DNA from: Treponema sp.
GTDB lineage: Bacteria > Spirochaetota > Spirochaetia > Treponematales > Breznakiellaceae
Reading direction: 5' to 3'
Length of the DNA: 43,311 bases
NCBI GenBank assembly: GCA_031266255.1
Contig: JAISBK010000113.1
Location: 1 to 43,311, forward strand
The notes below the pieces were generated by a model. It was not told where the DNA came from, ran no database searches, and saw only the letters and a list, made by a program, of their open reading frames with translations. The position numbers were made by a program, and so were the translations under genes. Of the stretch, positions 625 through 22,889 are shown in pieces (position 1 is the stretch's first letter; the number at the start of each line of letters is the position of its first letter).

Positions 625-651
625 TTAAGTTTCTAGTCTAAGCTCCGATAT
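625..651 (+). promoter_or_regulatory. sigma-28 (FliA/SigD)-type promoter for flaB
   Basis: TTAAGTTT-N11-TCCGATAT compared with the enterobacterial consensus TAAAGTTT-N11-GCCGATAA and the B. subtilis SigD -10 GCCGATAT. It lies about 200 nt upstream of the flaB ATG. Confidence 0.55.
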
Positions 652-854
652 TAATAGTGAAATTGGACTACAGGTATGTGATCGTCTAACCCCATCACAG
701 TTCTGTATGTTCAAGTATTTTCGTCCTGCTCTAAAAATGCAGTTGAAGATTTTAAAAATCTACATTTTTGATTACAATAATAATGTAGACGGCACGGATG
801 CCGCGGCGTTGAACCCGTGAAAGGGTACGCCGAAAAAGCCAAAGGAGTGACATT

Positions 855-1715
855 ATGATCATTAATCACAACATAAGCGCCATGTTTGCTGATAGGTCCC
901 TTAAATCCACCCAGACAAATCTTGAAAAAAACATTGAAAAATTATCAAGTGGATTACGGATTAACCGATCCGGGGATGATCCTTCAGGTCTTGCAGTTTC
1001 CGAAAAACTGCGCAGCCAAATTCGGGGTCTGAATATGGCATCTGCCAATGCCCAAAATGGTATCTCGTTCATTCAGACCACTGAAGGGTACCTCCAAGAA
1101 TCCCAGGATATTCTACAGCGGCTTCGTGAATTGGCAGTACAGTCTTCCAATGGGATCTATACCGAAGAAGATCGAACCTATATGCAGATTGAAGTATCGG
1201 CTCTGATCGACGAATTGGATCGGGTTGCTTCTCACGCCCAATTCAACGGCATGAACCTCATCACTGGACGGTTTGCCCGGCAAGGGGGCGAGAATGTGGT
1301 TACCGCTTCCCTGTGGCTTCACATCGGGGCTAACATGGATCAGCGGGAACAGGTGTTTATCAGCACCATGACCGCCAAAGCATTAGGGGTTCGGAATGTG
1401 GGAGATGAAACTTTGCTTACGCTTGGGGATCCAGACAGCGCCAACCGGGCCATTGGAACCTTGGACGAAGCCCTCAAGCGGGTCAGTAAACAGCGGGCAG
1501 ATCTGGGAGCCTATCAGAACCGCTTGGAACATGCAATCCGGGGCATTGATATAGGAGCGGAAAACTTCCAGGCTTCTGAATCTCGTATCCGGGATGCCAA
1601 TATGGCAACTGAAATGGTTTCCTTTACCAAGAACCAGATTATCAGTCAGGCTGGTACGGCTATGCTGGCTCAGGCCAATCAGCGCAGCCAGGGTATTCTC
1701 CAGTTACTCCAATAG
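855..1715 (+). CDS. flaB: flagellin, periplasmic flagellar filament core protein FlaB
   Basis: 286 aa. N-terminus [10 protein letters not shown]...[30 protein letters not shown] and C-terminus ...[29 protein letters not shown] are the conserved flagellin N/C domains. The short variable region is typical of spirochaete FlaB. SD AAAGGAG lies upstream. Confidence 0.95.
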
Positions 1716-2578: not shown

Positions 2579-2592
2579 CTAATGCCGCATGG

Positions 2593-2636
2593 GGTACGTT
2601 TGAGTGCGCGTTGAGGTTCAGATACTCAAACGTACC
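2593..2636 (+). terminator. perfect 13-bp hairpin between the CBM9-like gene and the spiro-SPASM operon
   Basis: GGTACGTTTGAGT (2593-2605) pairs with ACTCAAACGTACC (2624-2636) across an 18-nt loop. The downstream tail is T-poor, so terminator function is inferred. Confidence 0.5.
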
Positions 2637-2668
2637 TCGGTTGGGGATTGAAATAAACAAACAAACTA

Positions 2669-2697
2669 TTGACGAGTACTCAGAATGCCGATATTGG
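2669..2697 (+). promoter_or_regulatory. candidate promoter abutting the spiro-SPASM start codon
   Basis: TTGACG (2669-2674) with a weak -10 (GATATT/TATTGG) 15-17 nt later. GCCGATAT (2687-2694) also equals the SigD-type -10 box, but no TAAA -35 sits at the right spacing. There is no SD before the ATG at 2704. Confidence 0.35.
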
Positions 2698-2703
2698 TAA
2701 AGT

Positions 2704-4260
2704 ATGAATGCCCTGGCAGTATTATATGGGGGCAGCCTTACCAAGGCGGCCTATGAGCAGGTCTTTTCAGGAAAAAGTGCCCTTGCCTGTGCAGTAGAAC
2801 AGGCAGCGGCGTTCCCGGATACTCGTAAAATTCTTCTATTAATAACCCAAACTATGCCTATCCAGGTCGTGGATTTGATGCACGGAATTGAGCTTATCCG
2901 GGCCACAGAATGGACAAAAAAACAGGTTCTTGATACGCTTGCCAGGGAATCCGTGGGTTTTGATCTTACTTATTTTGTCTGGGCTGATTGTCCTTTCTTG
3001 GATCCTGAGCTTGCTAAAGCTATTGCAGAACGGCACCTCCGGTATGCGGCGGAATATTCTTATGCCGATGGTTGGCCCTACGGGCTCTCTCCGGAAATTT
3101 TGGCCCCGGGTATGGGGGGGATTCTCTCAAAAATAATCGGGGATGCGGATGGCCCGATGGAACGGGATACCCTGTTTTCGGTTATACAAAAAGATATCAA
3201 TGCCTTTGATATTGAAACGGTCATTTCTCCGGTGGATCTGCGTTGCCACCGTCTGAGCCTTACCGCAGATTCTAAACGGAACCTCCTTTTGTTGACCCGG
3301 TTTGCAGAAACGGGTTTTTTAAGGGCCCAGGATGCGGAAACCATCATTGCTGAAAAACCGGGACTCTTACGGACCCTTCCCAATTTTTTTAGTATTCAGG
3401 TAGCTGGTTCTTGTCCTCAGCGCTGTACTTTCTGTCCCTATCCCCGTTTCCAGAGTTCAGGAGATCCTACCCAAAGAAGGGACTTCCTGGATGGAACGCG
3501 TTTTGAGGAACTTTTAGCTCGTATCATCGCCTTTGCCGGAGATGGAGTGATCGATCTTTCCCCCTGGGGAGACCTAAGCCTTCATCCGCAAAAGATGGAG
3601 CTTATACGCATGGTGCTCTCCCGGCCTGAGCTCTCCCTCATTATTGAAAGTTCCGGTCTTGGCTGGAAAACCGATGAACTGGAACAAGTGGCTGCAGAAG
3701 CCCAAAAAGCCCTGCCTCGGATCAATAGGATGGTACCCCTCTCATGGATAATCGCCTTGGATACCCAGGATCCGACCCGGTACCGGGAAATCCGGGGTCT
3801 AGGCTATACCGAAGCCCTGGCAAGCGCTCAAACGCTGATCCGGCTTCTCCCGCAGGACTCCTATGTGCAAGCAGTCAGAGTCAAAGGGTTTGAAGATGAT
3901 ATTGAACAGTTCTATCGGTACTGGAAAGAAGCAGGTGCCCATATCATTATCCAGAAATACGATCATTTTTGCGGCTCTCTGCCTGCATTAGGGGCTGCAG
4001 ATCTTTCACCGGTAAAACGCCAACCCTGCTGGCACCTCATGCGGGATATGGTGATACTGCTTGACGGAACCGTTCCCTGCTGCAGAGAAGATCTGGCCGC
4101 GCTGACCGGAAATGCGGAAAAAGGAATCTGGGGGAACGTTTTTGTTGATTCCTTGGAAGGTATCTGGTCTCGAGGCGCGGCGTTTTACCAGGAACAATGT
4201 ATACCGGTTTACTCAGGACTGTGCGCGGAGTGTGATGAATACTATACCTACAACTTTTAA
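2704..4260 (+). CDS. spiro-SPASM-type radical SAM/SPASM protein with nucleotidyltransferase-like N-terminal domain
   Basis: 518 aa. CX3CX2C (SCPQRCTFCPY, nt 3412-3435). C-terminal Cys cluster C442, C459, C460, C499, C507, C510 (CWHLMRDMVILLDGTVPCC...CIPVYSGLCAEC). N-terminal ALAVLYGG...ADCPFLDPEL resembles the MobA/IspD-like fold. Confidence 0.85.
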   Translation: MNALAVLYGGSLTKAAYEQVFSGKSALACAVEQAAAFPDTRKILLLITQTMPIQVVDLMHGIELIRATEWTKKQVLDTLARESVGFDLTYFVWADCPFLDPELAKAIAERHLRYAAEYSYADGWPYGLSPEILAPGMGGILSKIIGDADGPMERDTLFSVIQKDINAFDIETVISPVDLRCHRLSLTADSKRNLLLLTRFAETGFLRAQDAETIIAEKPGLLRTLPNFFSIQVAGSCPQRCTFCPYPRFQSSGDPTQRRDFLDGTRFEELLARIIAFAGDGVIDLSPWGDLSLHPQKMELIRMVLSRPELSLIIESSGLGWKTDELEQVAAEAQKALPRINRMVPLSWIIALDTQDPTRYREIRGLGYTEALASAQTLIRLLPQDSYVQAVRVKGFEDDIEQFYRYWKEAGAHIIIQKYDHFCGSLPALGAADLSPVKRQPCWHLMRDMVILLDGTVPCCREDLAALTGNAEKGIWGNVFVDSLEGIWSRGAAFYQEQCIPVYSGLCAECDEYYTYNF

Positions 4261-5356
4261 CGATACATTGCCTTCATATACTGCGGTAGGAGGTACTGAA
4301 CGGGGAGCTTCTACCGGACTTTCTGCAGTACTCCTGGGCAGAGGTGGAGGTCGGTATCCTCGGCGCACCCGCTTTCAGGAACTGGAAAAAATAGGCTTTG
4401 ATTATATCATCTCTATGGAAGGTCCTCAGGAACGGTACGATGTAGAAGAACTCTCCGGGCTTTTCCCCCAGGTTCGTTTTATTTTATTGAAGGAAGCGGT
4501 AAGTATTGGTGAACAGATCAACCTGGCTGCATCAGAACTATCCAGTTCCCTTTTTTTTGTATTGCGGAACGATCTGAGGATACTCCATAGCGGCGGAGCT
4601 TCCCGAATGGAGGAGCGGCTTCGGCTGGGCCAGGAAGAATTATACAAGGAAGATGGGCAAAAAAGCCTGTATAAACGGCTTTGTACCGTTCCATTGATTC
4701 AAAATTCTCATTTTGAAACCCTACCCACGCTCATTGCCCCGGCAGTATTCCATTCGAGCGTCAAACCATTGTTCTTTGCCCCGACTAAAGAGGGACAGTC
4801 CTCCCTATACCCCTTTGATGGAGTCGGTATTTATGACCGAATCCGCTTTATTCGTCTGGGTGGTTTTGACCGTACTTTAAAAAGTGCGCATTGGCAACTG
4901 ATGGATTTTGGGTTCCGGGCATATTTGTGGGGAGAGCAGATCAGTGCCACCCAACTGATACGCCTTTCTTATGACGGAGAAACACCCCCTGAGGATAGTA
5001 CGGCAGATGAAAGTTATCGGCGCTTTTATCTCAAGAATTTGGCTCCAGTTTTCCGGGGGGATTCTGCTTCGATTCCGCTTCGGTGTTTCCCAGGGTATTT
5101 CTGGCGGAGCGGCAAAGATCTCTTAACCGCCTGGCATGATTTTTCTCAGGGACGCCAATGGGTAAAGACGAACCGTTACCGGTTTCGCAGCGATGCTCGG
5201 GCTATAACCGAGCTTTGGGAGGATATGGGTGAACTGTCGGATGATCATACCCGGGTGGAAGAGGGGAGAACGGAAAATGCAGGAATGGAAGTACTCAGAC
5301 TTGAAAATTCGAAAATTGAACCGGAAGATATCGAAGGTTCAGGGCGCTTTGAATGA
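4235..5356 (+). CDS. hypothetical protein, possibly GT-A-fold glycosyltransferase-like
   Basis: ORF 4112..5356. ATG 4235 (MNTIPTT) chosen because upstream codons overlap the SPASM Cys motif. LSAVLLGRGGG...LFFVLRNDL resembles the start and DxD region of GT2 enzymes but is degenerate. The stop overlaps the next start. Confidence 0.6.
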   Translation: MNTIPTTFNDTLPSYTAVGGTERGASTGLSAVLLGRGGGRYPRRTRFQELEKIGFDYIISMEGPQERYDVEELSGLFPQVRFILLKEAVSIGEQINLAASELSSSLFFVLRNDLRILHSGGASRMEERLRLGQEELYKEDGQKSLYKRLCTVPLIQNSHFETLPTLIAPAVFHSSVKPLFFAPTKEGQSSLYPFDGVGIYDRIRFIRLGGFDRTLKSAHWQLMDFGFRAYLWGEQISATQLIRLSYDGETPPEDSTADESYRRFYLKNLAPVFRGDSASIPLRCFPGYFWRSGKDLLTAWHDFSQGRQWVKTNRYRFRSDARAITELWEDMGELSDDHTRVEEGRTENAGMEVLRLENSKIEPEDIEGSGRFE

Positions 5357-6048
5357 TCACCGCGGTGGTACTACAGGCGCGACTTGACTCAACTCGCCTT
5401 CCTGGAAAATCCCTCTTAGCCCTGGGAGGTAAGCCGCTTATCGTGCGGGTTATGGAGGCCCTCAAAGGAGTATGGAGTGATCGGTATGTTCTTGCCTGCC
5501 CCCATGACTGTGTAGGAGCCTTTGGCCCTTTGGCAGAACAGGCCGGTTTTGACCTGGTCGCAGGCTCAAAGGAAGATGTGTTAAGCCGTTATAGCGCGGC
5601 AGTACACCATTTCGGAATAGACCGCCTTATCAGGGCAACGGCGGACAATCCTTTTGTATTTGTAGATGCAGCGAATACCCTCAACCAGGAGGCCTGTGAA
5701 CGTAAGGCTGATTATGCTGGTTATAGCGGTTTACCCTATGGTGCAGGGGTGGAATCAGTGGCTGCAGAAGCCTTGCTCAGGGCTGCGCGGGATGCTTCTC
5801 TCTCGACTGAACGAGAACATGTGTGTCCTTATTTGTATACCCATCCTGACTTGTTCCTGATTCACCGACCCTTGGCTCCACTGATATGGCAGGGGCCTTG
5901 GATGCGGATAAGCATTGATACCCCGGAAGATTACCAACGAGGCTTGATACTCTTTGATGCCTTGGCAGAAGGGAATGCTTCCCAGGGAAAGACCATCATT
6001 GCCGCATACCGCAGGAGTTTCAAGAACTTAGAGGATGGACTGCCATGA
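5353..6048 (+). CDS. cytidylyltransferase family protein (SpsF/NeuA-like, CMP-sugar synthetase type)
   Basis: MITAVVLQARLDSTRLPGKSLLALGGKPLI is the glycosyltransferase-family cytidylyltransferase N-terminal signature. ATGA overlaps at both ends. Confidence 0.85.
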   Translation: MITAVVLQARLDSTRLPGKSLLALGGKPLIVRVMEALKGVWSDRYVLACPHDCVGAFGPLAEQAGFDLVAGSKEDVLSRYSAAVHHFGIDRLIRATADNPFVFVDAANTLNQEACERKADYAGYSGLPYGAGVESVAAEALLRAARDASLSTEREHVCPYLYTHPDLFLIHRPLAPLIWQGPWMRISIDTPEDYQRGLILFDALAEGNASQGKTIIAAYRRSFKNLEDGLP

Positions 6049-7964
6049 TGCAAGGCCCCCTCCTGGTGGTTTCCACCTTTGAAAAAGGCCGCGGGGGAGG
6101 GCACTTGGTCCGTTCCCTGGTTCTGGTTCGTTCCCTTCGTGCCCTCAAGCGAGAGGTGTACCTTTATATCCCCGAACTTAAACCCCATTTTGAACTCAGG
6201 TCCATTATTACCGAAGGAACCGTGGAAGCTTCCTGGCTCATAGGGGATATCGAAACCATCAAGAATCTGAGTTGGGAAGGAATTATCCTTGACCGTTTTA
6301 GAACCGCTCCTGAAGAATTTGCCCAATGGGCGGCCTTAGCTCCCCTGATCGGTATTGATGAGGGAGGGCCGCAGCGGGATTGTTTTGATTTTCTCATTGA
6401 TCTGCTTCCTGGTCTTCCAGGTAATGCTCTCCCCAATATTCTCGCTCCTCATCTCATCCCCCTGCCAAAGAACCGCCGGCCTTCTTTCGGTATTTCACGG
6501 GATGCTCCGAAGCATCAAACCTTGAAAATCCTGGTGAGTTTCGGCGCGGAAGATCCTGCAGGGCTAAGCATTCCGGCCTGCCTTGCTTTGAAATTGTCAG
6601 GGCAAACAGACATTACCGTCTTATTTGGCGGCCTTAACCAGACAGGAGAGCAGCAAAAGGCGGTCCTTGCTGCTGAGGGGATTCGGGTTGTGGAGGGCAT
6701 GACTGAACTCCGGGAACAGCTTGCCATCTATGATCTGGTATTTACCCACTTCGGCCTTACCGCTTTTGAAAGTTTGGCTGCTCGAGTACCGGTATTGGTC
6801 CTCTCTCCCAGTACCTATCACGAGAAACTGGCCCTCCATGCAGGGTTCATATCCGGGGGCATCGGTAAAAAGGGGGCGCGTTGCTTACGAAACATCCTCC
6901 TGAATGATAAAGCGCTGGTATCCCTAGGGGATCGGTGCGAGCGAATCCGGGTGCGTTATGGGATTAAGGCAACAGGAGAGGATGAAGGTCCTTCCTCTCA
7001 GGGACTGGGGGATCTACTGGGGGCCTATACCCTCCGGGTACCTTTGACCTGTCCGGTCTGTGGGGGCGCCTCCCCTACGCGGGATCCGGTCTGTGCCCGA
7101 TTCCCGGATCGAAGCTACCGGCGTTGTCTGCGTTGCGGTATGGTGTACCTTCTCCGCTGCTCCATACCTCCCATTACTTACGCCCGGGACTATTTTTTTA
7201 GCTTTTATAAACAGCAATATGGCAAAACCTACCTTGAAGATTTTCCACATCTGGTACAGTGCGGAAAAAAACGACTGCACCATAGTAAGCGGATCCTCTA
7301 CCGTTCCAGAAAGAAGCGGGGGGAAGATCCTTCCAAGACCCCATTCCGGCTCTTGGATATAGGCTGTGCCTATGGACCATTCCTGGTTGCCGCACAAGAA
7401 GAAGGATTTTTGCCTTTTGGCATGGATCCTGCAGAAGATGCGGTTCGGTATGTCCGGGATGAACTGAACATGCCGGCATTCCAGGGTTTTTTCCCGGAAA
7501 CTCCCTTACCTCCTACATTTAGAGAAGGAGGGTTTGACCTCATCTCCCTCTGGTATGTACTGGAACATTTTGAAAAACCGGGAGCAGTTCTTACAGAACT
7601 GTACCGACTCCTCAAACCCGGCGGGGTATTGGCCTTTGCGACCCCTTCTGGTTCTGGTATATCAGGCCGCAAGTCCTTCAAAGATTTCCTTGAACAAAGT
7701 CCGCCGGATCATTGGACCATTTGGAAGCCTTCCCGGATCAGGAGCATCCTCAAACTATTTGGATTTAAACTCAAAAAAGTAGTTATCTCTGGACATCATC
7801 CAGAACGCTTTCCCTTAGTGGGAAAGTTTTTAGGTGAATCCAGGAAAAAAAGCGGCATAGTATACGGTTTATTCCTCTGGATAAGCCGTTTATTGCATCT
7901 CGGAGATACCTTTGAGGTGTATGCGGTTAAAAAAACGGCGATTACCATATCGGCCGTTGAGTAA
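6045..7964 (+). CDS. fusion protein: PseG-like GT-B domain + zinc ribbon + class I SAM-dependent methyltransferase
   Basis: N-terminal half: GRGGGHLVRSLVL...ILVSFGAEDPAG...FTHFGLTAFESLAARVPVLVL (GT28-C/PseG-like). CPVCGG...CLRCG at nt 7050-7136. LLDIGCAYGPF...WYVLEHF...LLKPGGVLAF are methyltransferase motifs I and post-I. Confidence 0.75.
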   Translation: MMQGPLLVVSTFEKGRGGGHLVRSLVLVRSLRALKREVYLYIPELKPHFELRSIITEGTVEASWLIGDIETIKNLSWEGIILDRFRTAPEEFAQWAALAPLIGIDEGGPQRDCFDFLIDLLPGLPGNALPNILAPHLIPLPKNRRPSFGISRDAPKHQTLKILVSFGAEDPAGLSIPACLALKLSGQTDITVLFGGLNQTGEQQKAVLAAEGIRVVEGMTELREQLAIYDLVFTHFGLTAFESLAARVPVLVLSPSTYHEKLALHAGFISGGIGKKGARCLRNILLNDKALVSLGDRCERIRVRYGIKATGEDEGPSSQGLGDLLGAYTLRVPLTCPVCGGASPTRDPVCARFPDRSYRRCLRCGMVYLLRCSIPPITYARDYFFSFYKQQYGKTYLEDFPHLVQCGKKRLHHSKRILYRSRKKRGEDPSKTPFRLLDIGCAYGPFLVAAQEEGFLPFGMDPAEDAVRYVRDELNMPAFQGFFPETPLPPTFREGGFDLISLWYVLEHFEKPGAVLTELYRLLKPGGVLAFATPSGSGISGRKSFKDFLEQSPPDHWTIWKPSRIRSILKLFGFKLKKVVISGHHPERFPLVGKFLGESRKKSGIVYGLFLWISRLLHLGDTFEVYAVKKTAITISAVE

Positions 7965-7984
7965 TCAGCAGATGGGAAATAATT

Positions 7985-9595
7985 ATGGAAGAACGATTAA
8001 TAATTCTGGGAGCAGGGGTGATGCAGGGACCTGCTATCAGAATTGCCAAGGCATTAGGTCTTGAAACAGTAGTAGTGGATGCGGATCCCGAGGCTCCCTG
8101 GGTTTCCTTAGCGGATCGCTTTGAGCAGATCGATTTAAAAGACAAAGAGCGCATTGCAGCCTTGGGAGCTTCCCTTAAAGCCCAGGGGGGCTTAGGGGGG
8201 ATCATGACCGCAGGAACCGATTTTTCCACCACCGTCGCCTGGGTTGCAGCGCAACTAGGGCTTCCTGGGATCTCCTATGAGGCTGCCCTTAATGCTTCGG
8301 ACAAGGAACGGATGCGCGGATGCTTTCAGGCGGCAGGATTGCCCTCTCCGGCGTTTGTAGTGGTTGACGCGGTTCCTGATTCTGGATTTTTCCCGTCCTT
8401 GGGGTATCCCCTGGTGGTCAAACCGGTCGACAATATGGGCGCCCGGGGCTGTCGTAGGGTTGACGGTCCTGAAATGCTCGGTGCCGCGGTAACCGATGCA
8501 CTTAAGTTCTCCCGAACAAATCGGGTCATTTTGGAAGCATACATGGAAGGACCTGAATTTTCGGTGGACGCCCTGGTATATCAGGGGGAGATCACCATCT
8601 GCGGTCTGGCAGATCGGCATATCTTTTTTCCTCCGTATTTTATTGAAATGGGCCATACTATGCCTACCGCCCTCAATCCGGCTGCTGCTGAAATCCTGCT
8701 TGCGGTCTTTAGGGCAGGAATCAGGGCCTTGGGTATCACCAACGGAGCCGCGAAGGGAGATATCAAACTCACCGCCCAGGGGCCTATGATAGGAGAAATT
8801 GCCGCCCGGCTTTCTGGGGGGTATATGTCAGGCTGGACTTACCCCTACTCATCAGGGGTGGAAGTTACCCGGGGAGCTATCCTGATTGCCTTGGGGAAGG
8901 CCCCCCAAGGACTCAAACCGATTCGGCATTGGACGAGCGCGGAACGGGCCTTTATCTCCATACCTGGAAAGGTCAAAGCTATTCACGGTATTGAAGCAGC
9001 CCAATCCCTTTCGTATGTGACTGATCTGTTTCTCCGCATTGAGCCGGGAACCCAGGTTCAGTTTCCGGAGAACAACGTAAGTAAATGTGGGAATATCATC
9101 AGCGCGGCTCCTACACGGGAAGCCGCGGTAAACGCCGCAGAACAGGCTGCCCGTTTGATTTTGATCCGGCTTGAGGCGCCGAATCAAGAGACCGAACACT
9201 TCCTCGCTTCCGATGCTGAAGTAGAACCATTTCCCCCTGATGCCTTTACCCTTCCAGAATCCCTCAGATCCCTCTTGGCTGCTTTCCCAGAACCGGATCA
9301 GACAAAGCTTGATGCAGAAACGGCTTCCGCTCAAAAGCCCCAGGTAGTACTGCTTCCGTTTCAGCCCTTGATCGAAGCAGGCTTACAAGATTATACCGGG
9401 AGGACCGTACAAGAGAGCCTTGAAGCGGTCCGGGCCATCACCGGGTTTCCCCTTCCCCTGGGGGAAGTTGGGGAGACTGGGGAAAAGACCGTGGTGCTAG
9501 GCCGCCGTTTCTGGGCTGCCCTGATCCGGGGAGGGTATCAGGGCGCGGTATATATAGTGGATACCTTCGTACCGGTCCATTCCTCTAGCAGGTAA
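7985..9595 (+). CDS. ATP-grasp domain protein (carboxylate-amine ligase type) with about 150-aa C-terminal extension
   Basis: LIILGAGVMQGPAIRIAKALGLETVVVD (pre-ATP-grasp Rossmann). YPLVVKPVDNMGARG...EAYMEGPEFSVDAL...GHTMP are typical ATP-grasp blocks. Confidence 0.85.
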   Translation: MEERLIILGAGVMQGPAIRIAKALGLETVVVDADPEAPWVSLADRFEQIDLKDKERIAALGASLKAQGGLGGIMTAGTDFSTTVAWVAAQLGLPGISYEAALNASDKERMRGCFQAAGLPSPAFVVVDAVPDSGFFPSLGYPLVVKPVDNMGARGCRRVDGPEMLGAAVTDALKFSRTNRVILEAYMEGPEFSVDALVYQGEITICGLADRHIFFPPYFIEMGHTMPTALNPAAAEILLAVFRAGIRALGITNGAAKGDIKLTAQGPMIGEIAARLSGGYMSGWTYPYSSGVEVTRGAILIALGKAPQGLKPIRHWTSAERAFISIPGKVKAIHGIEAAQSLSYVTDLFLRIEPGTQVQFPENNVSKCGNIISAAPTREAAVNAAEQAARLILIRLEAPNQETEHFLASDAEVEPFPPDAFTLPESLRSLLAAFPEPDQTKLDAETASAQKPQVVLLPFQPLIEAGLQDYTGRTVQESLEAVRAITGFPLPLGEVGETGEKTVVLGRRFWAALIRGGYQGAVYIVDTFVPVHSSSR

Positions 9596-9666: not shown

Positions 9667-10737
9667 ATGCATACTAGGCGTTTCTTGCTCAGGATAGTGT
9701 TTTCCAGCATCTTCTTTATATCTATACCAATCCTGGGCTTTGGGGATGAGAAGGCCCTCACCTTGGATGAAACCCTCAAAAGCCTGGATTTGCCTGAAAG
9801 CGCTACAACATTCCGTTGGGATCCCTTTTTCCAGATTGGGATCTTCGCACGGGCAGATCAGTACGCATCCTTCCAGGTTGGCCTACCTGGTGAAATAGGT
9901 CTGGTTATACTTAACGGTAAAGAAATCGTCTTTCTCTCCTCCCCCTTTCTTGAGCAAGGGGCGTTGCGGTTTCCTCAAGCTTTTGTGAACGCCCTCAGTA
10001 AGGCCTTGGAAGATACCATTCCTCAGGAAGCGCCTGTCCAATTTCGTATTGCCGGGATCATCGTAGATCCTGGTCATGGCGGTAAAGATACCGGAGCCGT
10101 GGGAAATCATAGTATTGGTGGAAAAGCTATACGGGTTGAGGAAAAGGACATTACCCTCAAGGTTTCCAAAGACCTGCATAGCCGGCTTTCCCGAAGTTTT
10201 CCTGATAAACAGGTCTTATTGACCCGGGACCAAGACACCTTCATCAGCTTGGATGATCGGGTAGCCATAGCCAATGCGATTCCCCTGAAAGACAACGAGG
10301 CCACCGTATACATTTCCATCCATGCCAATGCATCCTTCAATAAACAAGTACGGGGCTATGAGGTCTGGTACCTGAGTCCAGAGTACCGGCGGACCGTCAT
10401 TGACCAGTCGAAATACAAGGATACTCAAGAAGTTATTCCCATTCTTAATGCCATGTTGGAGGAAGAATTCACCTCTGAAAGTATTAGGATGGCTGAATCA
10501 ATTGTGAAACGGTTTGATGAAACCCTGGGCAGTTCGCTTCCTTCCCGGGGTATCAAAGCAGAGGAATGGTTCGTAGTACGGAATGTTCGGATGCCTTCGG
10601 TCTTGGTGGAGCTAGGATTTTTAAGCAATGAGACGGACGCCGCACTTTTGACCGATGAAACATACTTACAGCACTTTTCAGAAGCCTTATATAAGGGTAT
10701 CATGGATTTTGTGGGTGAGTTTGAAGGATCGTCATAA
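9667..10737 (+). CDS. N-acetylmuramoyl-L-alanine amidase (Amidase_3, AmiC-like) with N-terminal domain
   Basis: Signal peptide. IVDPGHGGKDTGAVG...SIHANA...GIKAEEWFVVRNVRMPSVLVELGFLSNETD are Amidase_3 motifs. Confidence 0.9.
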   Translation: MHTRRFLLRIVFSSIFFISIPILGFGDEKALTLDETLKSLDLPESATTFRWDPFFQIGIFARADQYASFQVGLPGEIGLVILNGKEIVFLSSPFLEQGALRFPQAFVNALSKALEDTIPQEAPVQFRIAGIIVDPGHGGKDTGAVGNHSIGGKAIRVEEKDITLKVSKDLHSRLSRSFPDKQVLLTRDQDTFISLDDRVAIANAIPLKDNEATVYISIHANASFNKQVRGYEVWYLSPEYRRTVIDQSKYKDTQEVIPILNAMLEEEFTSESIRMAESIVKRFDETLGSSLPSRGIKAEEWFVVRNVRMPSVLVELGFLSNETDAALLTDETYLQHFSEALYKGIMDFVGEFEGSS

Positions 10738-10787
10738 TGAAGCATAAACTTGAGCAAGTCTCTAAAGAATGGGTATATTAGGTTCAC

Positions 10788-11297
10788 ATGAAGGGTACGA
10801 GGAAAATTAAAAAAAATGGCGGTTTCTGGGTAAAACCCTATATCCGGCGTTTATGCTACCTGCTTCTGTTAGGGTTCTTTACCTTTACCCACTTCCGGCA
10901 GTTAAATCAGGTGAGGTGGACCTTTATGTTTTATACGTTGGGGGATGGAAAGCCGGTAGTGGAAGACCGCATGGTTTCCCGATCTCCTTCAGAAGAAATT
11001 GCCTTGAGACGCTATGTGGAGGAGGTCCTCCTTGGGCCGTTGGCGCCGGATTTTCTGCCTTTGTTTCCAAGGGAGACCCGGCTTCGTTCATTACTATACC
11101 GGGATGGAGCTGTATACGTGGATCTTTCGGAAAGCGCTGCCTTGCCCCCCTTGGAAGCCCCGGGCGGGGATATCTTTCAGAGCCTGGATACCCTCCAGAG
11201 GGGGATCCGGCGGAATTTTCCTGTGGTCAAAGAGGTGAAACTTTTTATCCATGGCCATGAGGTACTGGTCCCTCAAACCAGTGATGTGTGGGGATAA
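10788..11297 (+). CDS. GerMN domain-containing membrane-anchored protein
   Basis: N-terminal TM segment. LRRYVEEVLLGP...RLRSLLYRDGAVYVDLSE...EVKLFIHGHEV resembles the GerMN/sporulation-germination domain. Confidence 0.65.
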   Translation: MKGTRKIKKNGGFWVKPYIRRLCYLLLLGFFTFTHFRQLNQVRWTFMFYTLGDGKPVVEDRMVSRSPSEEIALRRYVEEVLLGPLAPDFLPLFPRETRLRSLLYRDGAVYVDLSESAALPPLEAPGGDIFQSLDTLQRGIRRNFPVVKEVKLFIHGHEVLVPQTSDVWG

Positions 11298-11346
11298 AAT
11301 TTATTTTAAATCGTTATAATATTGCAAAAATCAGGGTAAAAAGCCG

Positions 11347-11374
11347 TTGACAAATTAATTATATTTTGTATACT
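11347..11374 (+). promoter_or_regulatory. sigma-70-type promoter for flaA
   Basis: TTGACA (11347-11352), a 16-nt spacer, then TATACT (11369-11374), about 50 nt before the ATG. SD GAAAGGAG. Confidence 0.5.
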
Positions 11375-11422
11375 TATTAATAATAGTATGTTAAAACTAC
11401 AGACAATTGAAAGGAGCTGTGA

Positions 11423-12481
11423 ATGAAACGTATCTTCATTCTTGTCGTCGTCACGTTGTTAGCAATGGGCTCGGTGTTTGCTGAAGAGTCGATACTTATC
11501 GATTTCTCAAAATTAACAGCCGATATTGTTCCCGATCAAAATGACGTGCCAACTCAAAATCGTGCGACCTTGATGGATTTCACCAATGAGGCCACCAGTA
11601 ACTTCACTGCTAGGCAGAGAGTAGCGATGAAGTCTTCTTTAGCTATAGACAGGTGGGATGTGGTATTTTCGTCCTCTTCACGGAATGTCACCACTAAGCA
11701 TCTAAGTTATACTAAAGAAGCCCCTTCCAAAGAGTGGGGCACAGTGATGGGCGTTCGGGTACACTTCCCGGTGGAGCCCTTTAATTCTTGGGCTATTGTA
11801 AAGCCGCCCTTTGATATTCCTGCATTTGAACCTCCAGCAGAGATTGATGATGACGGAAATATCCAGCCTGGTGAAGCATCTGGTGTTACTGGTCCTAGCC
11901 GGTTTGAAGGTGAAGCTGATGAAGACGGCAAGCCGGTTGGTGGTTTCGGGGTGCTCAAGAACGTAGGAACCATTAAGTCAATAGCGGTAAATGCCTATGG
12001 ACTCAATTTCCCCCACGCGCTTTCGGTAATTTTGGTAGATGACAAAGGGAACGAAAAAACCTATTTCATGGGTTATCTTAACTTTGAAGGTTGGGGAGAA
12101 CTCCGGTGGGATAATCCTGCGTATGTGCAGAACGTACGGAACCGGGAATTGCGCCTATACCCCATCTATCCAGATTCAACGCCTTTTGTGAAGTTTGGTG
12201 GATTCCTCATTCAGCGGAGCGCCTCCAGTCCTGGCGGAGATTACATTGGTTATTTCAAGGATGTTAAAGTCATCTACGATAAGGCCGTATTGGATACTGA
12301 ACGGGATATTGAGGATGAATCCCTGTGGAATATCATCCAGGATCGGGAAACTGCCCGGAAAACCTCAGAATTGCAGCGGCTTGGTCAGCAAGAAGTCCAG
12401 CGCTATTTGGATAATGAACGGCAAGCTACTGAAACTACCTTTACCCCCACCGCGGGTGCTAGTAGTGAGGCTGAAGAATAA
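11423..12481 (+). CDS. flaA: flagellar filament outer layer (sheath) protein FlaA
   Basis: Signal peptide, then EESILIDFSKL...GVLKNVGTIKSIAVNAYGLNFPH...GDYIGYFKDVKVIYDKAVL. This matches my recollection of Treponema FlaA sequences along the whole length. Confidence 0.85.
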   Translation: MKRIFILVVVTLLAMGSVFAEESILIDFSKLTADIVPDQNDVPTQNRATLMDFTNEATSNFTARQRVAMKSSLAIDRWDVVFSSSSRNVTTKHLSYTKEAPSKEWGTVMGVRVHFPVEPFNSWAIVKPPFDIPAFEPPAEIDDDGNIQPGEASGVTGPSRFEGEADEDGKPVGGFGVLKNVGTIKSIAVNAYGLNFPHALSVILVDDKGNEKTYFMGYLNFEGWGELRWDNPAYVQNVRNRELRLYPIYPDSTPFVKFGGFLIQRSASSPGGDYIGYFKDVKVIYDKAVLDTERDIEDESLWNIIQDRETARKTSELQRLGQQEVQRYLDNERQATETTFTPTAGASSEAEE

Positions 12482-12518
12482 GTCGAGTAAAGTGCTTATC
12501 CACGTAGTATCATGAACT

Positions 12519-12569
12519 AAAGCTGCCTAAAAAATCCTTAGTGGATTTTTAGGCAGCTTTTTAGTTTTT
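12519..12569 (+). terminator. rho-independent terminator of flaA
   Basis: An about 18-bp stem (AAAGCTGCCTAAAAAATCC / GGATTTTTAGGCAGCTTT, one bulge), a 5-nt loop, then TTAGTTTTT. Confidence 0.8.
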
Positions 12570-12591
12570 ATAGGGAAAACTGGATCATAGG

Positions 12592-13869
12592 ATGTATACT
12601 TGTGCAATTCCCGATCAGCATATACTCCGAAAAACATACGAAACGTATGCCCAGGTAAGGATTTTAATTACCAGGGATATTGAAATCATCCTTGAGGAAA
12701 AGCTCAAGTTTCTTTCATCCCGTCCGCTCGTTAAAGGCCGGGTTAAGGAATTTGAGAGCTATTATAAAAAATACATCAGGCTTCTTCAAAAAGATCCGCT
12801 CTGTTCAAATGATCTGGGGATTACCGATGTAATCGGTATTAGGGTTGTATGCCCTTTTTTTGAAGATCTCGCGGTAGTTGAAAGATGCTTGAAAACGAAT
12901 TTTGCAGTTATCGAGATAGAACGGAAGGGTTCTAATTATTCTTTCAAAGAATTCGGGTATGAATCAATTCATTTCTTGATAAAAATCCCTGAACCTCTAA
13001 TCAAGAAGCGGGGCAACTGCGGATTAGACGTAGTAGAGATTCAAATTCGTACTATTCTCCAGGATGCTTGGGCTGAAGTGGAACATGAGCTGGTGTATAA
13101 AGCGGCGTTTACTCCTTTCGATGAACCTATGAAACGTAAATTAGCGGCTTTGAATGCTAGTCTTTCCCTGGCAGATACGATTTTTCAGGAAGTCAGGACC
13201 TATCAGCGAAAACTTAACCGGGAATTGGAAAAGCGGCGGGATTCTTTTTTTAAGAAGATTGAAGCATCCATTGATACCCCGCTGTTTACTAAGGAAAAAT
13301 CAAAAAAGCCTGCTCAGAACCATCAAAAGGAAATTGCAATTGACAAAAGCCAAATAGACGCACCGACCCCGGATGCAGGAGACTCTCTGGAAAATAATTC
13401 AATTGATGAACTTTTGCTTAAAGCCCTGCATGCCCATAATGAGCATCGATTTACGGCAGCCATGGGCTTATACACCTATATTCTAAAAATGGAGCCTGAA
13501 AATACCATTGCGTCTCTTATTTATAAACACCGGGGCATGGCCAATTTTGCCCAATCTTGCTATGAGGACGCAATCCAGGATTTTACCTGTTCTGTAGAAC
13601 TAGATCGTGAATCCTATAAAGCGGTCTATTTTCGGGGTATCGTTAAAACGGTTTTGTTACAGTACCTTGAGGCCATTGATGATTTTACCCTATCCCTCAA
13701 GATAAACCCCTATCAGGCTTTTTGCTACTATCGCCGGGGACAAGCCTATTATCACTTGGATGACTTTCTCAAAGCCTTGACGGATTGTGAAGCAGCCTTA
13801 ACGTTAGAACCTGATTCCAAGCCTATAAGCCGATTCAAGGAACTCCTCCTCAATAAACTAAACAGGTAG
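12592..13869 (+). CDS. RelA/SpoT-domain small alarmone synthetase fused to C-terminal TPR repeats
   Basis: GRVKEFESYYKK...ITDVIGIRVVCPF...FGYESIHFLIK...VEIQIRTILQDAWAEVEHELVYK is the (p)ppGpp synthetase fold. No HD hydrolase domain. The C-terminal about 150 aa show TPR periodicity (A..Y..AL...P....Y). Confidence 0.85.
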   Translation: MYTCAIPDQHILRKTYETYAQVRILITRDIEIILEEKLKFLSSRPLVKGRVKEFESYYKKYIRLLQKDPLCSNDLGITDVIGIRVVCPFFEDLAVVERCLKTNFAVIEIERKGSNYSFKEFGYESIHFLIKIPEPLIKKRGNCGLDVVEIQIRTILQDAWAEVEHELVYKAAFTPFDEPMKRKLAALNASLSLADTIFQEVRTYQRKLNRELEKRRDSFFKKIEASIDTPLFTKEKSKKPAQNHQKEIAIDKSQIDAPTPDAGDSLENNSIDELLLKALHAHNEHRFTAAMGLYTYILKMEPENTIASLIYKHRGMANFAQSCYEDAIQDFTCSVELDRESYKAVYFRGIVKTVLLQYLEAIDDFTLSLKINPYQAFCYYRRGQAYYHLDDFLKALTDCEAALTLEPDSKPISRFKELLLNKLNR

Positions 13870-13908
13870 GGTCCACGGAGAAGCCTTCTGTGCTTACCTG
13901 GGGTTCGA

Positions 13909-15048
13909 TCACCCAACCTGCAAGGTCTGCAAAAAGTATCCGGTTGGTTCCCATGCCCGTTCTCCATAGCCCCCGGCCATTATCCATGCGGAAGGAACCT
14001 GCTGTTTCCGAAGGTACTGATATACGAGCCGGTCCCGTTCAATACAGCGATCCAAACTTAGTTTGAGAAGGTTGCTGGAAGGAAGTCCGTCATGTTCATA
14101 AGGGTCAGACCCATCAACCACGATGACCAGATCGGGGCGCAGGGTTTCAGAGCATTTCTCCAACAGCCCTAACCCCTGCTGTAATTCCGGCATATACGTA
14201 TCCTCTGCTCCTGCTTCGATGCTGATCTCCACATCCCCCTGGATCCAAGGGGCTCGGCCCGGGGGAGCGACCTGCAGCGTTTCATCATCTAGGGGCCAGC
14301 CTTTGGCCATGTGTATGGAGAGGTTGCAAATATCCAGAGCCGCTGCGGGGTCTTTATCCCCTCTCAGTTCTCCCCGCATCCGGGAAAAATGGACCAGTTC
14401 CGCAGTACCACAGCCTTTATGGGCATCCAAGTCTACAATCCAAATGCGGCGTGCCCGGTTTTCAGCCTGCAATTTCCGAGCCGCAATTATGATGTCATTG
14501 ATAAGACAGAACCCCGCGCCTTGGTCATACCGGGCATGGTGCATACCGCCCCCCAGATAATAACAGAATCCTGGCTCAGAGCGCCCTTGATCCAAGGCAA
14601 GCCGACAGGCCAAGTAGGTACCCTCAACCTGGGCTACTATAAGGTGAAACAGCTCTATGAGGGGCTTCACCGCCAGATCCGGCTCATAGCGGTTGGGTCG
14701 TCCTTGGCTGTCCATAAGCTCATAAGCGTTGAACAGGGCTTTGAGCAGTCCTTGAGAACCTTCGGGACCCTCCTGATACAGCGTCGCGATAAACTCCTTT
14801 TGATGTACCCGTTCCAAGTCCTCGCGATTTATGCATGTGGGGTTGCCTAGCAAGCCGCGTGCCTCACGACAATTGAGAACCGGCTTGAGAGGGAGGGCGT
14901 CGAGAACCCCTGCTCGGCCAAGAAAATCAATGATCCGCGATGCCCGGGCAGGGGAAATCGGGAGCATGATGCCGTAATCAGTATGGGTCATTGTGAGGTC
15001 AGGATCATATAGAATCATAGGATCAGTATATATATATGCCTTATGCAA
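13909..15048 (-). CDS. histone deacetylase-family (arginase/deacetylase fold) protein
   Basis: GGGMHHA catalytic His pair, VDLDAHKGCGT zinc-ligand block, GSDPYEHD and GGYG tyrosine motif. Confidence 0.85.
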   Translation of the reverse strand: MHKAYIYTDPMILYDPDLTMTHTDYGIMLPISPARASRIIDFLGRAGVLDALPLKPVLNCREARGLLGNPTCINREDLERVHQKEFIATLYQEGPEGSQGLLKALFNAYELMDSQGRPNRYEPDLAVKPLIELFHLIVAQVEGTYLACRLALDQGRSEPGFCYYLGGGMHHARYDQGAGFCLINDIIIAARKLQAENRARRIWIVDLDAHKGCGTAELVHFSRMRGELRGDKDPAAALDICNLSIHMAKGWPLDDETLQVAPPGRAPWIQGDVEISIEAGAEDTYMPELQQGLGLLEKCSETLRPDLVIVVDGSDPYEHDGLPSSNLLKLSLDRCIERDRLVYQYLRKQQVPSAWIMAGGYGERAWEPTGYFLQTLQVG

Positions 15049-15271
15049 TGAAAGCCTGGGGCATGAGCTTTATGTAAGGTGAAGCTGATTTATGCTACTC
15101 AGGAACAAAATTTTCTTGACCTTTATAGTACTGGTTAAGTATGTTTTTAATGAGTATTAATCTACAAGACGTAACCAGTCTTCGGTTTTAAACTCATACA
15201 AAGTACCTGTAATAGGTATACGTTTCACCACGCGACACAAGTACCGAATTCATAAAAAGGTGTGCATTGTT

Positions 15272-15961
15272 ATGGCAATAGAAACTAGTTCTCAGTATCA
15301 CGGAGAAAACCAACATTCAGAGCAGTCTGGGGAAAACCCTCAAGCTGCCCCTGATCCCCTTCCTGAGTCTGTTCAGGAAGAACCAGGCGCCGCGGAACAA
15401 GCTAAAAACCCAAGCCCAGAGGAAAAACTACAGGCCCTGGAAGAGCAGATTGCCGAGCTTAAGGATCAGTATTTACGTAAAGCCGCGGAATTTGAAAATT
15501 TCCGCAAGCGTATGTATCGGGAGAAGCAGGAAGCCATTGATTTTGCCAATCAGAGCCTGCTTTTGGACCTCATCCCTATCATTGATGATTTTGAGCGGGC
15601 CATCAAAGCCGCTGATGCTTCCCAGAAGGCTGCGACAGATTTCACCGCGTTTTACGAAGGGATCAGTATGATAGAAAAGCGCCTGTCTTCTCAATTAGAG
15701 CACAAGTGGGGCCTCAAACGCTATGATTCCACCGGAGAACCCTTCGACCCCAACCGGCATGAAGCGATCATGATGGAGAAGTCCCAAGATATAGTCGAGC
15801 CAGTGGTAAAGGAAGATTTCATTAAGGGGTATATCTTAAAGGAGCGGGTCGTAAGGTGTGCAAAAGTAAAGGTCTTGATGCCTGAGCAGTCTCTGACCGA
15901 TAGAGAAACGGAAAAGGCCGACCCTCATGGAGATGCCGCATCAGGGGAAAATCCTTCATAA
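15272..15961 (+). CDS. grpE: nucleotide exchange factor GrpE
   Basis: LKDQYLRKAAEFENFRKR...LLDLIPIIDDFERA...FDPNRHEA...GYILKERVVRCAKVKV. ATG 15272 preferred over GTG 15260 because of SD AAGGTG upstream. Confidence 0.9.
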   Translation: MAIETSSQYHGENQHSEQSGENPQAAPDPLPESVQEEPGAAEQAKNPSPEEKLQALEEQIAELKDQYLRKAAEFENFRKRMYREKQEAIDFANQSLLLDLIPIIDDFERAIKAADASQKAATDFTAFYEGISMIEKRLSSQLEHKWGLKRYDSTGEPFDPNRHEAIMMEKSQDIVEPVVKEDFIKGYILKERVVRCAKVKVLMPEQSLTDRETEKADPHGDAASGENPS

Positions 15962-16135
15962 TGATGCGGGGGATATAGGGCGTATGATCGCAATTACGTG
16001 ATTTTTTAGTATATTTATTAATACGGGATTAATCATATTTTTCTATTTTTTCTAGGTATTTTTCTAAACCAAAGGATAAAGTAAAGAAAAAGAAGCAAGA
16101 AATAATAGAAAAAATGGGAAAGGAGTTTATCATAC

Positions 16136-20441: not shown

Positions 20442-20477
20442 AGTGGGGGTTTGGGAGATAAGGATACTAAGAAAAAA

Positions 20478-22001: not shown

Positions 22002-22889
22002 ATGGGAAGTTTTGCTGAGCGTTTAAAAAAATTCTTTGGTATCCAGAACGTCGTTTCCGAATCGTTGTTTGGAGAATTGACGGATTTACTGGTAGAAGGT
22101 GATTTTGGACCTGCAGGAGCCTACAAGACCGTGAATACGTTGCGAGCACTCTGTAAAAAAGAGAAGATCACCGAAGCTGAAGGAGTACGGAACCATTTAG
22201 CCAAACTGCTGGAAGGATTGCTCCTGGAACGAGGACAGGGTACGGTTGGGGTTCTGGATGTACCTGCGGGCACCTTACAAATGATCCTCTTATTGGGGGT
22301 GAATGGGGTGGGAAAAACCACCACTGCGGCTAAATTGGCGGATCGGTATCGTTCCCAACAGAAAAGGCCGATCCTGGCAGCAGCAGATACCTTCCGGGCC
22401 GCAGCAATTGATCAGCTTAAAATCCACGGTGAACGCCTGGGGGTACGGGTGGTGGCCCATAAACAGGGCGGTGATCCTGCAGCGGTAGTCTACGATGCGA
22501 TTGATGCAGCCCGTTCAGGGGGAGGGGATCTCATCATCGCGGATACTGCGGGCAGAATGCATACCAAATCCGCGCTGGTTGAGGAATTAAAGAAGATAGA
22601 CCGGATAGTAGAATCCAAGGCTGCGGGGGCCCGATATATCAAGTGGTTGGTACTGGATGCTACCACAGGCCGGAATGCCCTAGTTCAAGCGGAAACCTTT
22701 CATCAAGCGGTTGCGTTGGACGGGGTCATTCTGACCAAATACGATTCCAGCGCCAAGGGAGGGGTGGTTTTCTCATTGGCCGAAGATCTGAAACTTCCCG
22801 TGGTTTTTATCGGTACCGGGGAAAAATACCCTGATATATACCCCTTTGATCCCCACCGTTATTCCCGGGAATTTGTCGGTCTTGCGTAA
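22002..22889 (+). CDS. ftsY: signal recognition particle receptor FtsY (NG domain only)
   Basis: LLLGVNGVGKTTTAAKLA, AADTFRAAAIDQL, DTAGR, LTKYDSSAKGG. Confidence 0.93.
   Translation: MGSFAERLKKFFGIQNVVSESLFGELTDLLVEGDFGPAGAYKTVNTLRALCKKEKITEAEGVRNHLAKLLEGLLLERGQGTVGVLDVPAGTLQMILLLGVNGVGKTTTAAKLADRYRSQQKRPILAAADTFRAAAIDQLKIHGERLGVRVVAHKQGGDPAAVVYDAIDAARSGGGDLIIADTAGRMHTKSALVEELKKIDRIVESKAAGARYIKWLVLDATTGRNALVQAETFHQAVALDGVILTKYDSSAKGGVVFSLAEDLKLPVVFIGTGEKYPDIYPFDPHRYSREFVGLA

Follow-up and report, generated by a model that had tools for sequence, protein, structure and literature searches.

The 43,311-nucleotide stretch of Treponema sp. DNA analysed here (contig JAISBK010000113.1; hereafter the window) carries, next to the flagellin gene flaB, a five-gene operon that begins with a radical S-adenosylmethionine (SAM) protein of the spiro-SPASM family. 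We think it rather likely that this operon is a late-stage biosynthesis and tailoring module, controlled by the flagellar sigma factor FliA (sigma-28), for a flagellin glycan of the pseudaminic acid (Pse) type that is activated with cytidine monophosphate (CMP). We infer the substrate and the order of the steps, as well as FlaB as the target, the flagellin being the probable acceptor of the glycan. Treponema primitia, Leadbettera azotonutricia and Breznakiella homolactica are among the named relatives of the window organism. Its nearest genome locus, L001, comes from a termite-gut Treponema metagenome-assembled genome (MAG), with 95% identity for the spiro-SPASM protein and 93-99% for the other genes.

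The five open reading frames (ORFs) lie on the same strand, with the overlaps and the gap that the initial annotation had described. ORF calls and an alignment of 26 homologues agreed with both the coordinates and the start of the second gene.

2704 to 4260, forward strand: ORF1, the spiro-SPASM protein of 518 amino acids (aa), with 558 bits on TIGR04321; AlphaFold2 (AF2) model with a predicted local distance difference test score (pLDDT) of 89.8 and a predicted template-modelling score (pTM) of 0.90
4235 to 5356, forward strand: ORF2, a GT-A-like protein of 373 aa, with a conserved start and motifs; glycosyltransferase GT-A fold suggested by a model
5353 to 6048, forward strand: ORF3, an SpsF/KdsB-type cytidylyltransferase of 231 aa (PF02348, E = 3.7e-22; PDB 6oew, E = 7e-12)
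6045 to 7964, forward strand: ORF4, a PseG-like/methyltransferase (MT) protein
7985 to 9595, forward strand: ORF5, an ATP-grasp carboxylate-amine ligase of the L-amino-acid-ligase type (ATP-grasp_4 and LAL_C2)

The ORF2 start at 4235 (MNTIPT) was conserved across the 26 homologues and a longer start at 4112 was not. ORF1 and ORF2 overlap by 26 nucleotides (nt), ORF2/ORF3 and ORF3/ORF4 are joined by ATGA overlaps, and the gap between ORF4 and ORF5 is 20 nt. These overlapping or near-abutting genes, together with their domain matches, uphold the view that they form one operon of sugar-nucleotide-type enzymes. The five genes would be a single transcription unit, its FliA promoter placed almost on the first start codon:

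2666 to 2694, forward strand: a sigma-28 (FliA)-type promoter at a conserved position, with the -10 box GCCGATAT at 2687-2694 and a weak -35 element, CTATTG, at 2666-2671

Gene order and the radical-SAM cysteine triads of genome loci were surveyed on the 80 closest of at least 560 genome matches, all in Treponema-like lineages. Within the window, GCCGATAT alone is unremarkable: GCCGATAW occurs 8 times against 2.9 expected, and the -35 element is poor. The view of the box as weak was reversed by its conservation, CGATA standing 10-20 nt 5' of the spiro-SPASM start in 74 of 80 distinct loci, compared with 1.1% of random positions. Anchored at the start, the loci gave the consensus T[T/A]AA-N16-GCCGATA[T/A], and the sequence flanking it was not conserved. 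With this family consensus and the -10 box GCCGATAT, the operon has a promoter of the TAAA-N15-GCCGATAA type, and locus L073 has a perfect TAAA-N15-GCCGATAA. In the T. denticola-like locus L081, where the cluster lies away from the fla genes, we found TTGCCGATAT 14 nt before the ATG. The promoter of flaB in the window, TTAA-N16-CCGATAT, is of the same type as that of the operon and matches the mapped sigma-28 promoter of T. denticola flaB2, a gene that is experimentally sigma-28 dependent (PMC9481697). Because the -10 box is so close to the ATG, the operon mRNA would be leaderless or nearly leaderless. The initial annotation had taken a SigD-type -10 box as a hint at a flagellar target; with the box held at a set distance from the start in so many loci, we regard the conserved promoter as the strongest flagellar link, independent of synteny.

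Gene order was also kept. Across the 80 closest loci, and down to 40% identity, the genes for the spiro-SPASM protein, GT-A-like protein, cytidylyltransferase, PseG-like/MT protein, ATP-grasp ligase, amidase, GerMN protein, FlaA and alarmone synthetase follow one another. A homologue of ORF2 adjoins the spiro-SPASM gene in nearly all loci that reach far enough, with an overlap of about 23-26 nt in most. Two loci are without the PseG-like/MT and ATP-grasp genes, and the spiro-SPASM/GT-A-like pair stands alone in L050, L052, L055 and L057-L060. The conserved core is the spiro-SPASM protein, its GT-A-like partner and the SpsF-type cytidylyltransferase. The pair is split only in L073, an environmental MAG, by a 5.6-kb opposite-strand insertion (11556-16603) that carries an Asp/Glu racemase, a Cache-adenylate cyclase, a dicarboxylate symporter and a solute-binding protein. 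Pse genes were found neither in this insertion nor downstream of the pair in the pair-only locus L052, the genes there being unrelated.

Proximity to flaB and flaA had been put forward as further evidence for a flagellar role. Both genes are where they were said to be in the window (flaB at 855-1715, flaA at 11423-12481). However, flaB lies upstream only in L001-L004, the four closest genomes, and the conserved neighbour is instead the amidase-GerMN-flaA-alarmone synthetase block, and in T. denticola even this block lies apart from the cluster. The T. denticola contig, L087, was located in a metagenome by a published primer, and 11 of the 12 published primers tested match it. The genes co-transcribed with T. 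denticola flaA have been determined experimentally (PMC9481697), and on L087 they encode a glyoxalase-like protein (TDE1716), Pgk (TDE1715), the amidase and the GerMN protein. We had considered the ATP-grasp gene or other cluster genes as members of that operon and rejected this, since TDE1716 and TDE1715 are glyoxalase-like and pgk. Because no member of the five-gene cluster is in the T. denticola flaA operon, synteny with flaA is clade-specific.

In the T. denticola-like locus L081 (cluster at 10001-15109) and the oral treponeme locus L083, the spiro-SPASM gene and the GT-A-like gene (26-nt overlap) are followed by a gene for a cytidylyltransferase/PseG-like/MT fusion of 855-872 aa. Their fusion in oral treponemes is an argument for placing the cytidylyltransferase, PseG-like and MT activities in one pathway. 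On the 3' side of the L081 cluster (15106-17792) are an FGGY carbohydrate kinase gene, whose start overlaps the stop of the fusion gene, and a gene for an Fe-dependent alcohol dehydrogenase; these two could serve glycerol metabolism or supply the hydroxy-acid side chain of the glycan. In T. pallidum, resequencing merged TP0284/0285, TP0286/0287 and TP0288/0289 into three genes (PMC3265458). These three merged genes, and a homologue named 'TP_0285', are why the core trio is apparently present in that species, which suggests that it survives in the minimal genome of T. pallidum as TP0284-TP0289.

The same neighbourhoods bear on the proposal that what the operon builds or modifies is a glycoconjugate outside the flagellum, for instance an envelope glycolipid, an acid like 3-deoxy-D-manno-octulosonic acid (Kdo) or a cell-wall-associated sugar, with only an indirect reason for its co-regulation with motility. 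The named relatives of ORF3 are CMP-Kdo synthetases, and the cluster abuts the peptidoglycan amidase and GerMN genes in most of the clade loci that reach far enough. The T. denticola-like cluster sits among housekeeping genes and is followed by the FGGY kinase and alcohol dehydrogenase genes, and no nonulosonate synthase is nearby in the window or the scanned flanks. However, a conserved FliA-type promoter is hard to square with a housekeeping envelope pathway, the enzyme set fits the known chemistry of the FlaB glycan, and the core is apparently retained in T. pallidum, which to our knowledge has no lipopolysaccharide. Flagellins are the best-documented glycoproteins of T. pallidum. We therefore consider a non-flagellar product unlikely.

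We found that the spiro-SPASM protein has three parts.

2704 to 3369, forward strand: N-domain with an SpsF-type cytidylyltransferase fold (profile against PDB 6oew, E = 1.8e-4; Foldseek TM 0.73-0.74)
3379 to 3963, forward strand: radical-SAM core with CX3CX2C at 3412-3435 (C237, C241, C244); best PDB sequence match BtrN, E = 4.5e-13
3970 to 4257, forward strand: C-terminal auxiliary Fe-S (SPASM/Twitch-like) domain (PF13186; C442, C460, C507, C510)

ORF1 scored 557.9 bits with TIGR04321 against a cut-off of 250, its residues 4-518 covering model positions 2-510 of 510, and is thus a full-length member of the spirochaete family that the initial annotation named as spiro-SPASM. This family has more than 1,300 members, and neither spiro-SPASM nor TIGR04321 is mentioned in the searchable literature. 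The Pfam Radical_SAM model (PF04055) gave 22.8 bits, under its gathering score of 29.5, and SPASM (PF13186) gave 21.6 bits, barely above its gathering score of 21.5. The AF2 model was built from 52 sequences. A nucleotidyltransferase-like N-domain, claimed from the letters alone, was recovered by the 6oew profile and Foldseek matches, and the first ~220 residues are paralogous to ORF3 (BLASTP E = 3e-6). In alignments, the N-domain is without the N-terminal R..S.R.P.K motif (Arg/Lys, binding cytidine triphosphate) that ORF3 retains, and its other motifs are invariant. Because the Arg/Lys motif is missing, the N-domain is probably not catalytic; it is probably a CMP- or CMP-sugar-binding module rather than an active transferase. 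SpsF-type cytidylyltransferases (COG1861-like; PDB 6oew from Leptospira; the Bacillus subtilis sps spore-coat genes) are the best match for both ORF3 and this N-domain, and the loss of the N-terminal motif sets the spiro-SPASM copy of the fold apart from ORF3.

The predicted CX3CX2C proved to be C237-C244. Foldseek relatives of the core were SuiB, BtrN, anSME, SkfB and DesII, with E = 1e-9 to 1e-11 against SuiB, BtrN and anSME, and CteB was also matched. BtrN (PDB 4m7t), the 2-deoxy-scyllo-inosamine dehydrogenase of butirosin biosynthesis, is thus both a structure match and the best sequence match, and it oxidises a small-molecule, sugar-like aminocyclitol. BtrN has one auxiliary [4Fe-4S] site, with ligands in what we take to be a C...C...CX2C arrangement, and C442, C460, C507 and C510 of the spiro-SPASM protein are arranged alike. 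These four cysteines are universal in the family, and the other three of the seven expected for SPASM are variable. Four would be enough for one auxiliary cluster, which fits a BtrN/Twitch-like domain. The cysteine-rich SPASM-type C-terminus of the initial annotation, marginal on PF13186, appears to behave like a BtrN-type single-cluster domain, not like the SPASM domain of a peptide maturase. Unlike BtrN, the spiro-SPASM protein carries the extra 220-aa cytidylyltransferase-like domain, is twice the size and is always paired with a GT-A-like protein; in many lineages it is also without the SAM-cluster cysteines.

We surveyed these cysteines in the 120 nearest relatives of the window protein and, across the family, in the 150 best 50%-identity cluster representatives of TIGR04321. 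The triad was kept in 120/120 close homologues and in all 80 genome loci of the wider clade, 8 of which have a longer first spacer; this expanded form (CXnCX2C, e.g. CPKNRTGSCHLCPYP) replaces CX3CX2C in L053, L062, L063, L066, L067, L069, L071 and L072. Of the 150 representatives, the full triad is present in 78 and wholly missing from 60, the remaining 12 being fragments or sequences with one or two of the cysteines. On a neighbour-joining tree, the losses form one large clade and several scattered tips. The triad was absent from all named host-associated Treponema sampled: T. pedis, Treponema sp. OMZ 788 (T. denticola-like), T. phagedenis, T. vincentii and the oral Treponema protein named 'TP_0285'. 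On TIGR04321, the OMZ 788 protein reaches 613 bits although it has none of these cysteines, more than the 558 of the window protein, and thus the family as defined includes many members unable to bind a radical-SAM cluster. Radical chemistry is probably used in the window lineage. Because 60 of the 150 representatives and all of the named host-associated species sampled have lost the triad, it evidently cannot be the conserved function of the family. The radical chemistry of the initial annotation is therefore plausible for this lineage, but it does not extend to the family.

These data also speak to whether the spiro-SPASM protein is a peptide maturase, of the kind acting on ribosomally synthesized and post-translationally modified peptides (RiPPs), that works on a ribosomal peptide or on a protein such as flagellin, the sugar genes being unrelated. 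The SPASM match would suit such an enzyme, as would the maturases SuiB, anSME, SkfB and CteB among the top Foldseek matches. However, there is no room for a precursor gene: from 2704 to 9595 one gene follows another with no gap above 20 nt, and the 125-nt gap upstream is taken up by a hairpin and the promoter. The aminocyclitol enzyme BtrN, not a maturase, is the best sequence match; the conserved C-terminal cysteines suffice for one cluster; a cytidylyltransferase-like domain is fused to the core, which is strictly coupled to sugar enzymes; and the triad is lost in ~40% of the family. We regard a peptide maturase as highly improbable. Sugar rather than peptide chemistry is indicated because the best PDB match of the core is BtrN, the N-domain is a paralogue of ORF3, the methyltransferase resembles those acting on nucleoside diphosphate sugars and small molecules, and the ligase is of the L-amino-acid-ligase type.

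ORF2 remained an orphan, as first described. It has 1141 homologues, nearly all named 'hypothetical', no Pfam or NCBIfam match, and no match of its sequence profile to the PDB. Its AF2 model has a pLDDT of 58.7, and the top Foldseek matches were GT-A enzymes (GalNAc-T, GtrB, DPMS) with a probability of 0.94-1.0, E ~1e-3 and TM ~0.3. R111-N112-D113 is at the expected place of DxD, the family consensus being W-N-D with only D113 invariant; W/R-N-D thus stands where a DxD motif was looked for. The R-N-D and the orphan status that the initial annotation had given hold; the GT-A fold suggested by the low-confidence model, with matches at E ~1e-3, is tentative.

The persistence of this partner raises the possibility that the pair itself is a spirochaete-specific flagellin-modifying transferase, in which the cytidylyltransferase-like domain would dock the CMP-sugar and the GT-A protein transfer it to Ser/Thr of FlaB; the other three genes would supply and decorate the donor, and the radical-SAM core would be optional. 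The pair is the invariant core, translationally coupled and standing alone in several genomes, and the sigma-28 promoter is directly before it. Its radical-SAM cysteines are dispensable, and its N-domain motifs and four auxiliary cysteines are invariant. CMP-sugar-using transferases characteristically have no DxD, as in ORF2, and the top Foldseek matches of ORF2 include polypeptide GalNAc-transferases. However, confidence in the ORF2 model is low and its GT-A matches reach only E ~1e-3. Moreover, a Maf-type flagellin glycosyltransferase has been reported in T. denticola (bioRxiv 10.1101/2023.12.03.569772), which makes a second transferase unnecessary. We give such a transferase pair little credence.

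The remaining three genes encode recognizable enzyme types. The SpsF/NeuA-type cytidylyltransferase proposed for ORF3 is sustained by its CTP_transf_3 match (E = 3.7e-22), and the N-terminal R..S.RLPGK motif is intact. Its NCBIfam matches were only the KdsB and MobA models, both far under the cut-off, and no PseF model was listed. ORF4 is divided as follows.

6045 to 7019, forward strand: N-domain, GT-B, MurG/PseG-like, with a GRGGGHLxR motif (TIGR03590 PseG, 34.5 bits, E = 1.6e-8, against a cut-off of 153.55)
7044 to 7139, forward strand: Cys-rich zinc-ribbon-like linker (CPVCG...CLRCG), C336, P337 and C339 being invariant in the alignment
7326 to 7772, forward strand: class I SAM methyltransferase domain (PF13489, Methyltransf_23, E = 6e-22)

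A G-x-G-H-x-x-R-like motif is present in the N-domain, whose profile matched a GT28-type enzyme in the PDB at E = 0.007 and PseG (3hbm) at E = 0.54. The PDB relatives of the methyltransferase are LahSB, UbiG and the sugar C-methyltransferase TcaB9. The methyltransferase and the zinc ribbon read from the sequence thus stood, with Methyltransf_23 and an invariant CPxC behind them, but the PseG call was weak. ORF5 is an ATP-grasp ligase, as predicted: ATP-grasp_4 gave 49.0 bits and LAL_C2 65.6 bits against gathering scores of 27 and 29.4, and its PDB relatives are BL00235 (E = 2e-20), RizA and BacD. Its last ~135 aa (9185-9595) have no Pfam match and may be a substrate-recognition domain.

We compared this enzyme set with what is reported of the treponemal glycan. 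In T. denticola (Kurniyati et al. 2017, cited in PMC13439194 and PMC9481697), the FlaB glycan is a 450.2-Da, Pse-configured nonulosonic acid with an amide-linked (N7) 2-methoxy-4,5,6-trihydroxyhexanoyl group, and it is essential for filament assembly; the initial annotation had mentioned an unusual O-linked glycan on Treponema FlaB. T. denticola FlaB1 has five O-glycosylated residues (PMC13439194). The window FlaB, from the same genus-level group, is 286 aa, the same length as FlaB1, and has Ser/Thr at all five positions (115, 126, 137, 152 and 171), a gapless correspondence between the two being assumed. The T. denticola glycan needs CMP activation, an amide-forming step and O-methylation, and the enzyme types encoded in the window fit these needs. 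In the literature reached, the biosynthesis genes of the treponemal glycan are not described, and some of the gene assignments may already be in print.

We propose that the operon encodes the cytoplasmic late stage of a pseudaminic-type nonulosonic glycan that is O-linked to FlaB. The PseG-like GT-B domain of ORF4 would release or handle a hexose precursor linked to uridine diphosphate, and ORF3 would turn the nine-carbon acid into a CMP-sugar. The ATP-grasp ligase would amide-link a carboxylic acid onto a free amino group of the sugar, and the methyltransferase of ORF4 would add a methyl group. The spiro-SPASM protein would hold the CMP-linked sugar by its degenerate cytidylyltransferase-like domain, and in the window lineage the BtrN-like radical-SAM core would oxidise or otherwise edit a carbon of the sugar. 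The DxD-less GT-A-like partner would be in complex with the spiro-SPASM protein, as a transferase or as a binding subunit.

Several observations weigh against this pathway. There was no match to PseB, PseC, PseH, PseI or Maf among the 29 window ORFs scanned, nor in the scanned flanks of L052, L073, L081 and L083; the initial annotation had likewise noted that core nonulosonate genes are not in the window. ORF3 is not recognizable as a PseF-type CMP-pseudaminate synthetase, since its resemblance is far below the family cut-off and its closest named relatives are KdsB; a PseF assignment thus did not hold. The N-domain of ORF4 falls well short of membership in the PseG family. The T. denticola-like cluster L081 has no ATP-grasp gene, although T. 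denticola makes an amide-linked glycan, and in T. denticola the five-gene cluster is next to neither flaA nor flaB. Because the spiro-SPASM protein of the T. denticola-like OMZ 788 is without the radical-SAM cysteines, radical chemistry can probably be dispensed with in making the T. denticola glycan, the sole such glycan of determined structure. In addition, sigma-28 regulons include non-filament genes too, and with a peptidoglycan amidase next to the cluster the target could also lie in the envelope.

The window glycan may differ from that of T. denticola, because the window organism retains the radical-SAM site and adds a ligase; L081, in comparison, has the cytidylyltransferase/PseG-like/MT fusion, no ATP-grasp gene and a cysteine-less spiro-SPASM protein. 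The Pse and legionaminic acid (Leg) loci of Campylobacter jejuni and Helicobacter pylori (PseB, C, H, G, I and F; the Ptm genes; H. pylori neuA/flmD) resemble the window locus in having a cytidylyltransferase beside or fused to a PseG-like GT-B, enzymes for amide-linked and methyl decoration, and a genetic link to flagellin; in the literature, glycosylation in those species is needed for filament assembly. Unlike them, the window locus has no PseB/C/H/I or Maf, its PseG and PseF matches are under the cut-offs, and it also encodes a radical-SAM enzyme with an auxiliary cluster and a GT-A-like protein without DxD, neither of which those loci have. We found no paper in the searchable literature that links radical SAM to flagellin glycosylation.

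The operon is flanked by three further elements of interest.

625 to 1715, forward strand: flaB (Flagellin_N and Flagellin_C; coding sequence 855-1715) with its own sigma-28 promoter (TTAA 625-628, CCGATAT 645-651)
2590 to 2639, forward strand: stem-loop between a CBM9-like gene and the operon (-31.5 kcal/mol, z = -4.6), without a T-tract
9667 to 12481, forward strand: downstream block of Amidase_3, a GerMN-domain protein and flaA (11423-12481), with Pfam matches and synteny in most loci reaching that far

On its 3' side, at 1739-1766, flaB has a clean intrinsic terminator made of an 11-bp stem with a T-run after it. Because flaB has its own sigma-28 promoter and this terminator, it is a transcription unit separate from the operon. 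Between the two is a gene for a secreted CBM9-like protein (1862-2578; CBM9_1 below threshold), present only in the four closest genomes. The hairpin noted upstream of the operon is indeed a strong fold. Among the loci compared, L001, the nearest relative, is the only one to share it, and for this reason we dropped it as an attenuator or riboswitch; it is most simply, and probably, the terminator of the upstream CBM9-like gene. Rfam and tRNA scans of the window found nothing.

No terminator is evident downstream of ORF5, and transcription of the operon may continue into the amidase gene. A near-consensus sigma-70 promoter (TTGACA-16-TATACT, 11/12 matches) is directly upstream of flaA at 11347-11374, and the mapped flaA promoter of T. 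denticola is four genes further upstream than this one. On the 3' side of flaA are a RelA/SpoT-TPR alarmone synthetase gene, with which the block extends to 13869, and then housekeeping genes. The whole block of Amidase_3, GerMN, flaA and the small alarmone synthetase is kept from termite-gut treponemes to T. denticola (window 9667-13869; L087 3036-6944), and we are aware of nothing that would explain why genes for a peptidoglycan amidase and an alarmone synthetase should lie on either side of a flagellar sheath gene. Elsewhere in the window, two ORFs that flank ftsY, at 20451-21983 (510 aa) and 22846-24099 (417 aa), lie between prfA and LolC/E-like ABC transporter genes, and neither has a Pfam or NCBIfam match.

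Motility is central for tissue invasion by pathogenic spirochaetes, and the locus offers a set of conserved genes under flagellar regulation, with TP0284-TP0289 as the probable T. pallidum members, whose deletion is feasible in T. denticola, a genetically tractable species. It also gives a functional context to the orphan NCBIfam family TIGR04321. Beyond the operon as a whole, we tentatively suggest, as a possibility open to considerable doubt, that the spiro-SPASM protein and its GT-A-like partner form a so far unrecognised machine, restricted to spirochaetes and controlled by FliA, that either works directly on a CMP-linked nonulosonic acid or passes it to flagellin. If this is true, the BtrN-like module of free-living and termite-gut treponemes would be the first radical-SAM enzyme of a nonulosonate or flagellin-glycan pathway. 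Host-associated treponemes, T. pallidum apparently among them, would have lost the SAM cluster and kept the spiro-SPASM protein as a subunit that binds the CMP-sugar without radical chemistry, its auxiliary Fe-S site holding it together. The radical-SAM site, kept in one clade and lost repeatedly elsewhere, is a natural experiment from which the contribution of the radical step to the glycan, and the role of the remainder of the protein, can be learned. The locus would thus be one for a flagellin nonulosonate glycan, with unprecedented components and a decaying radical-SAM site.

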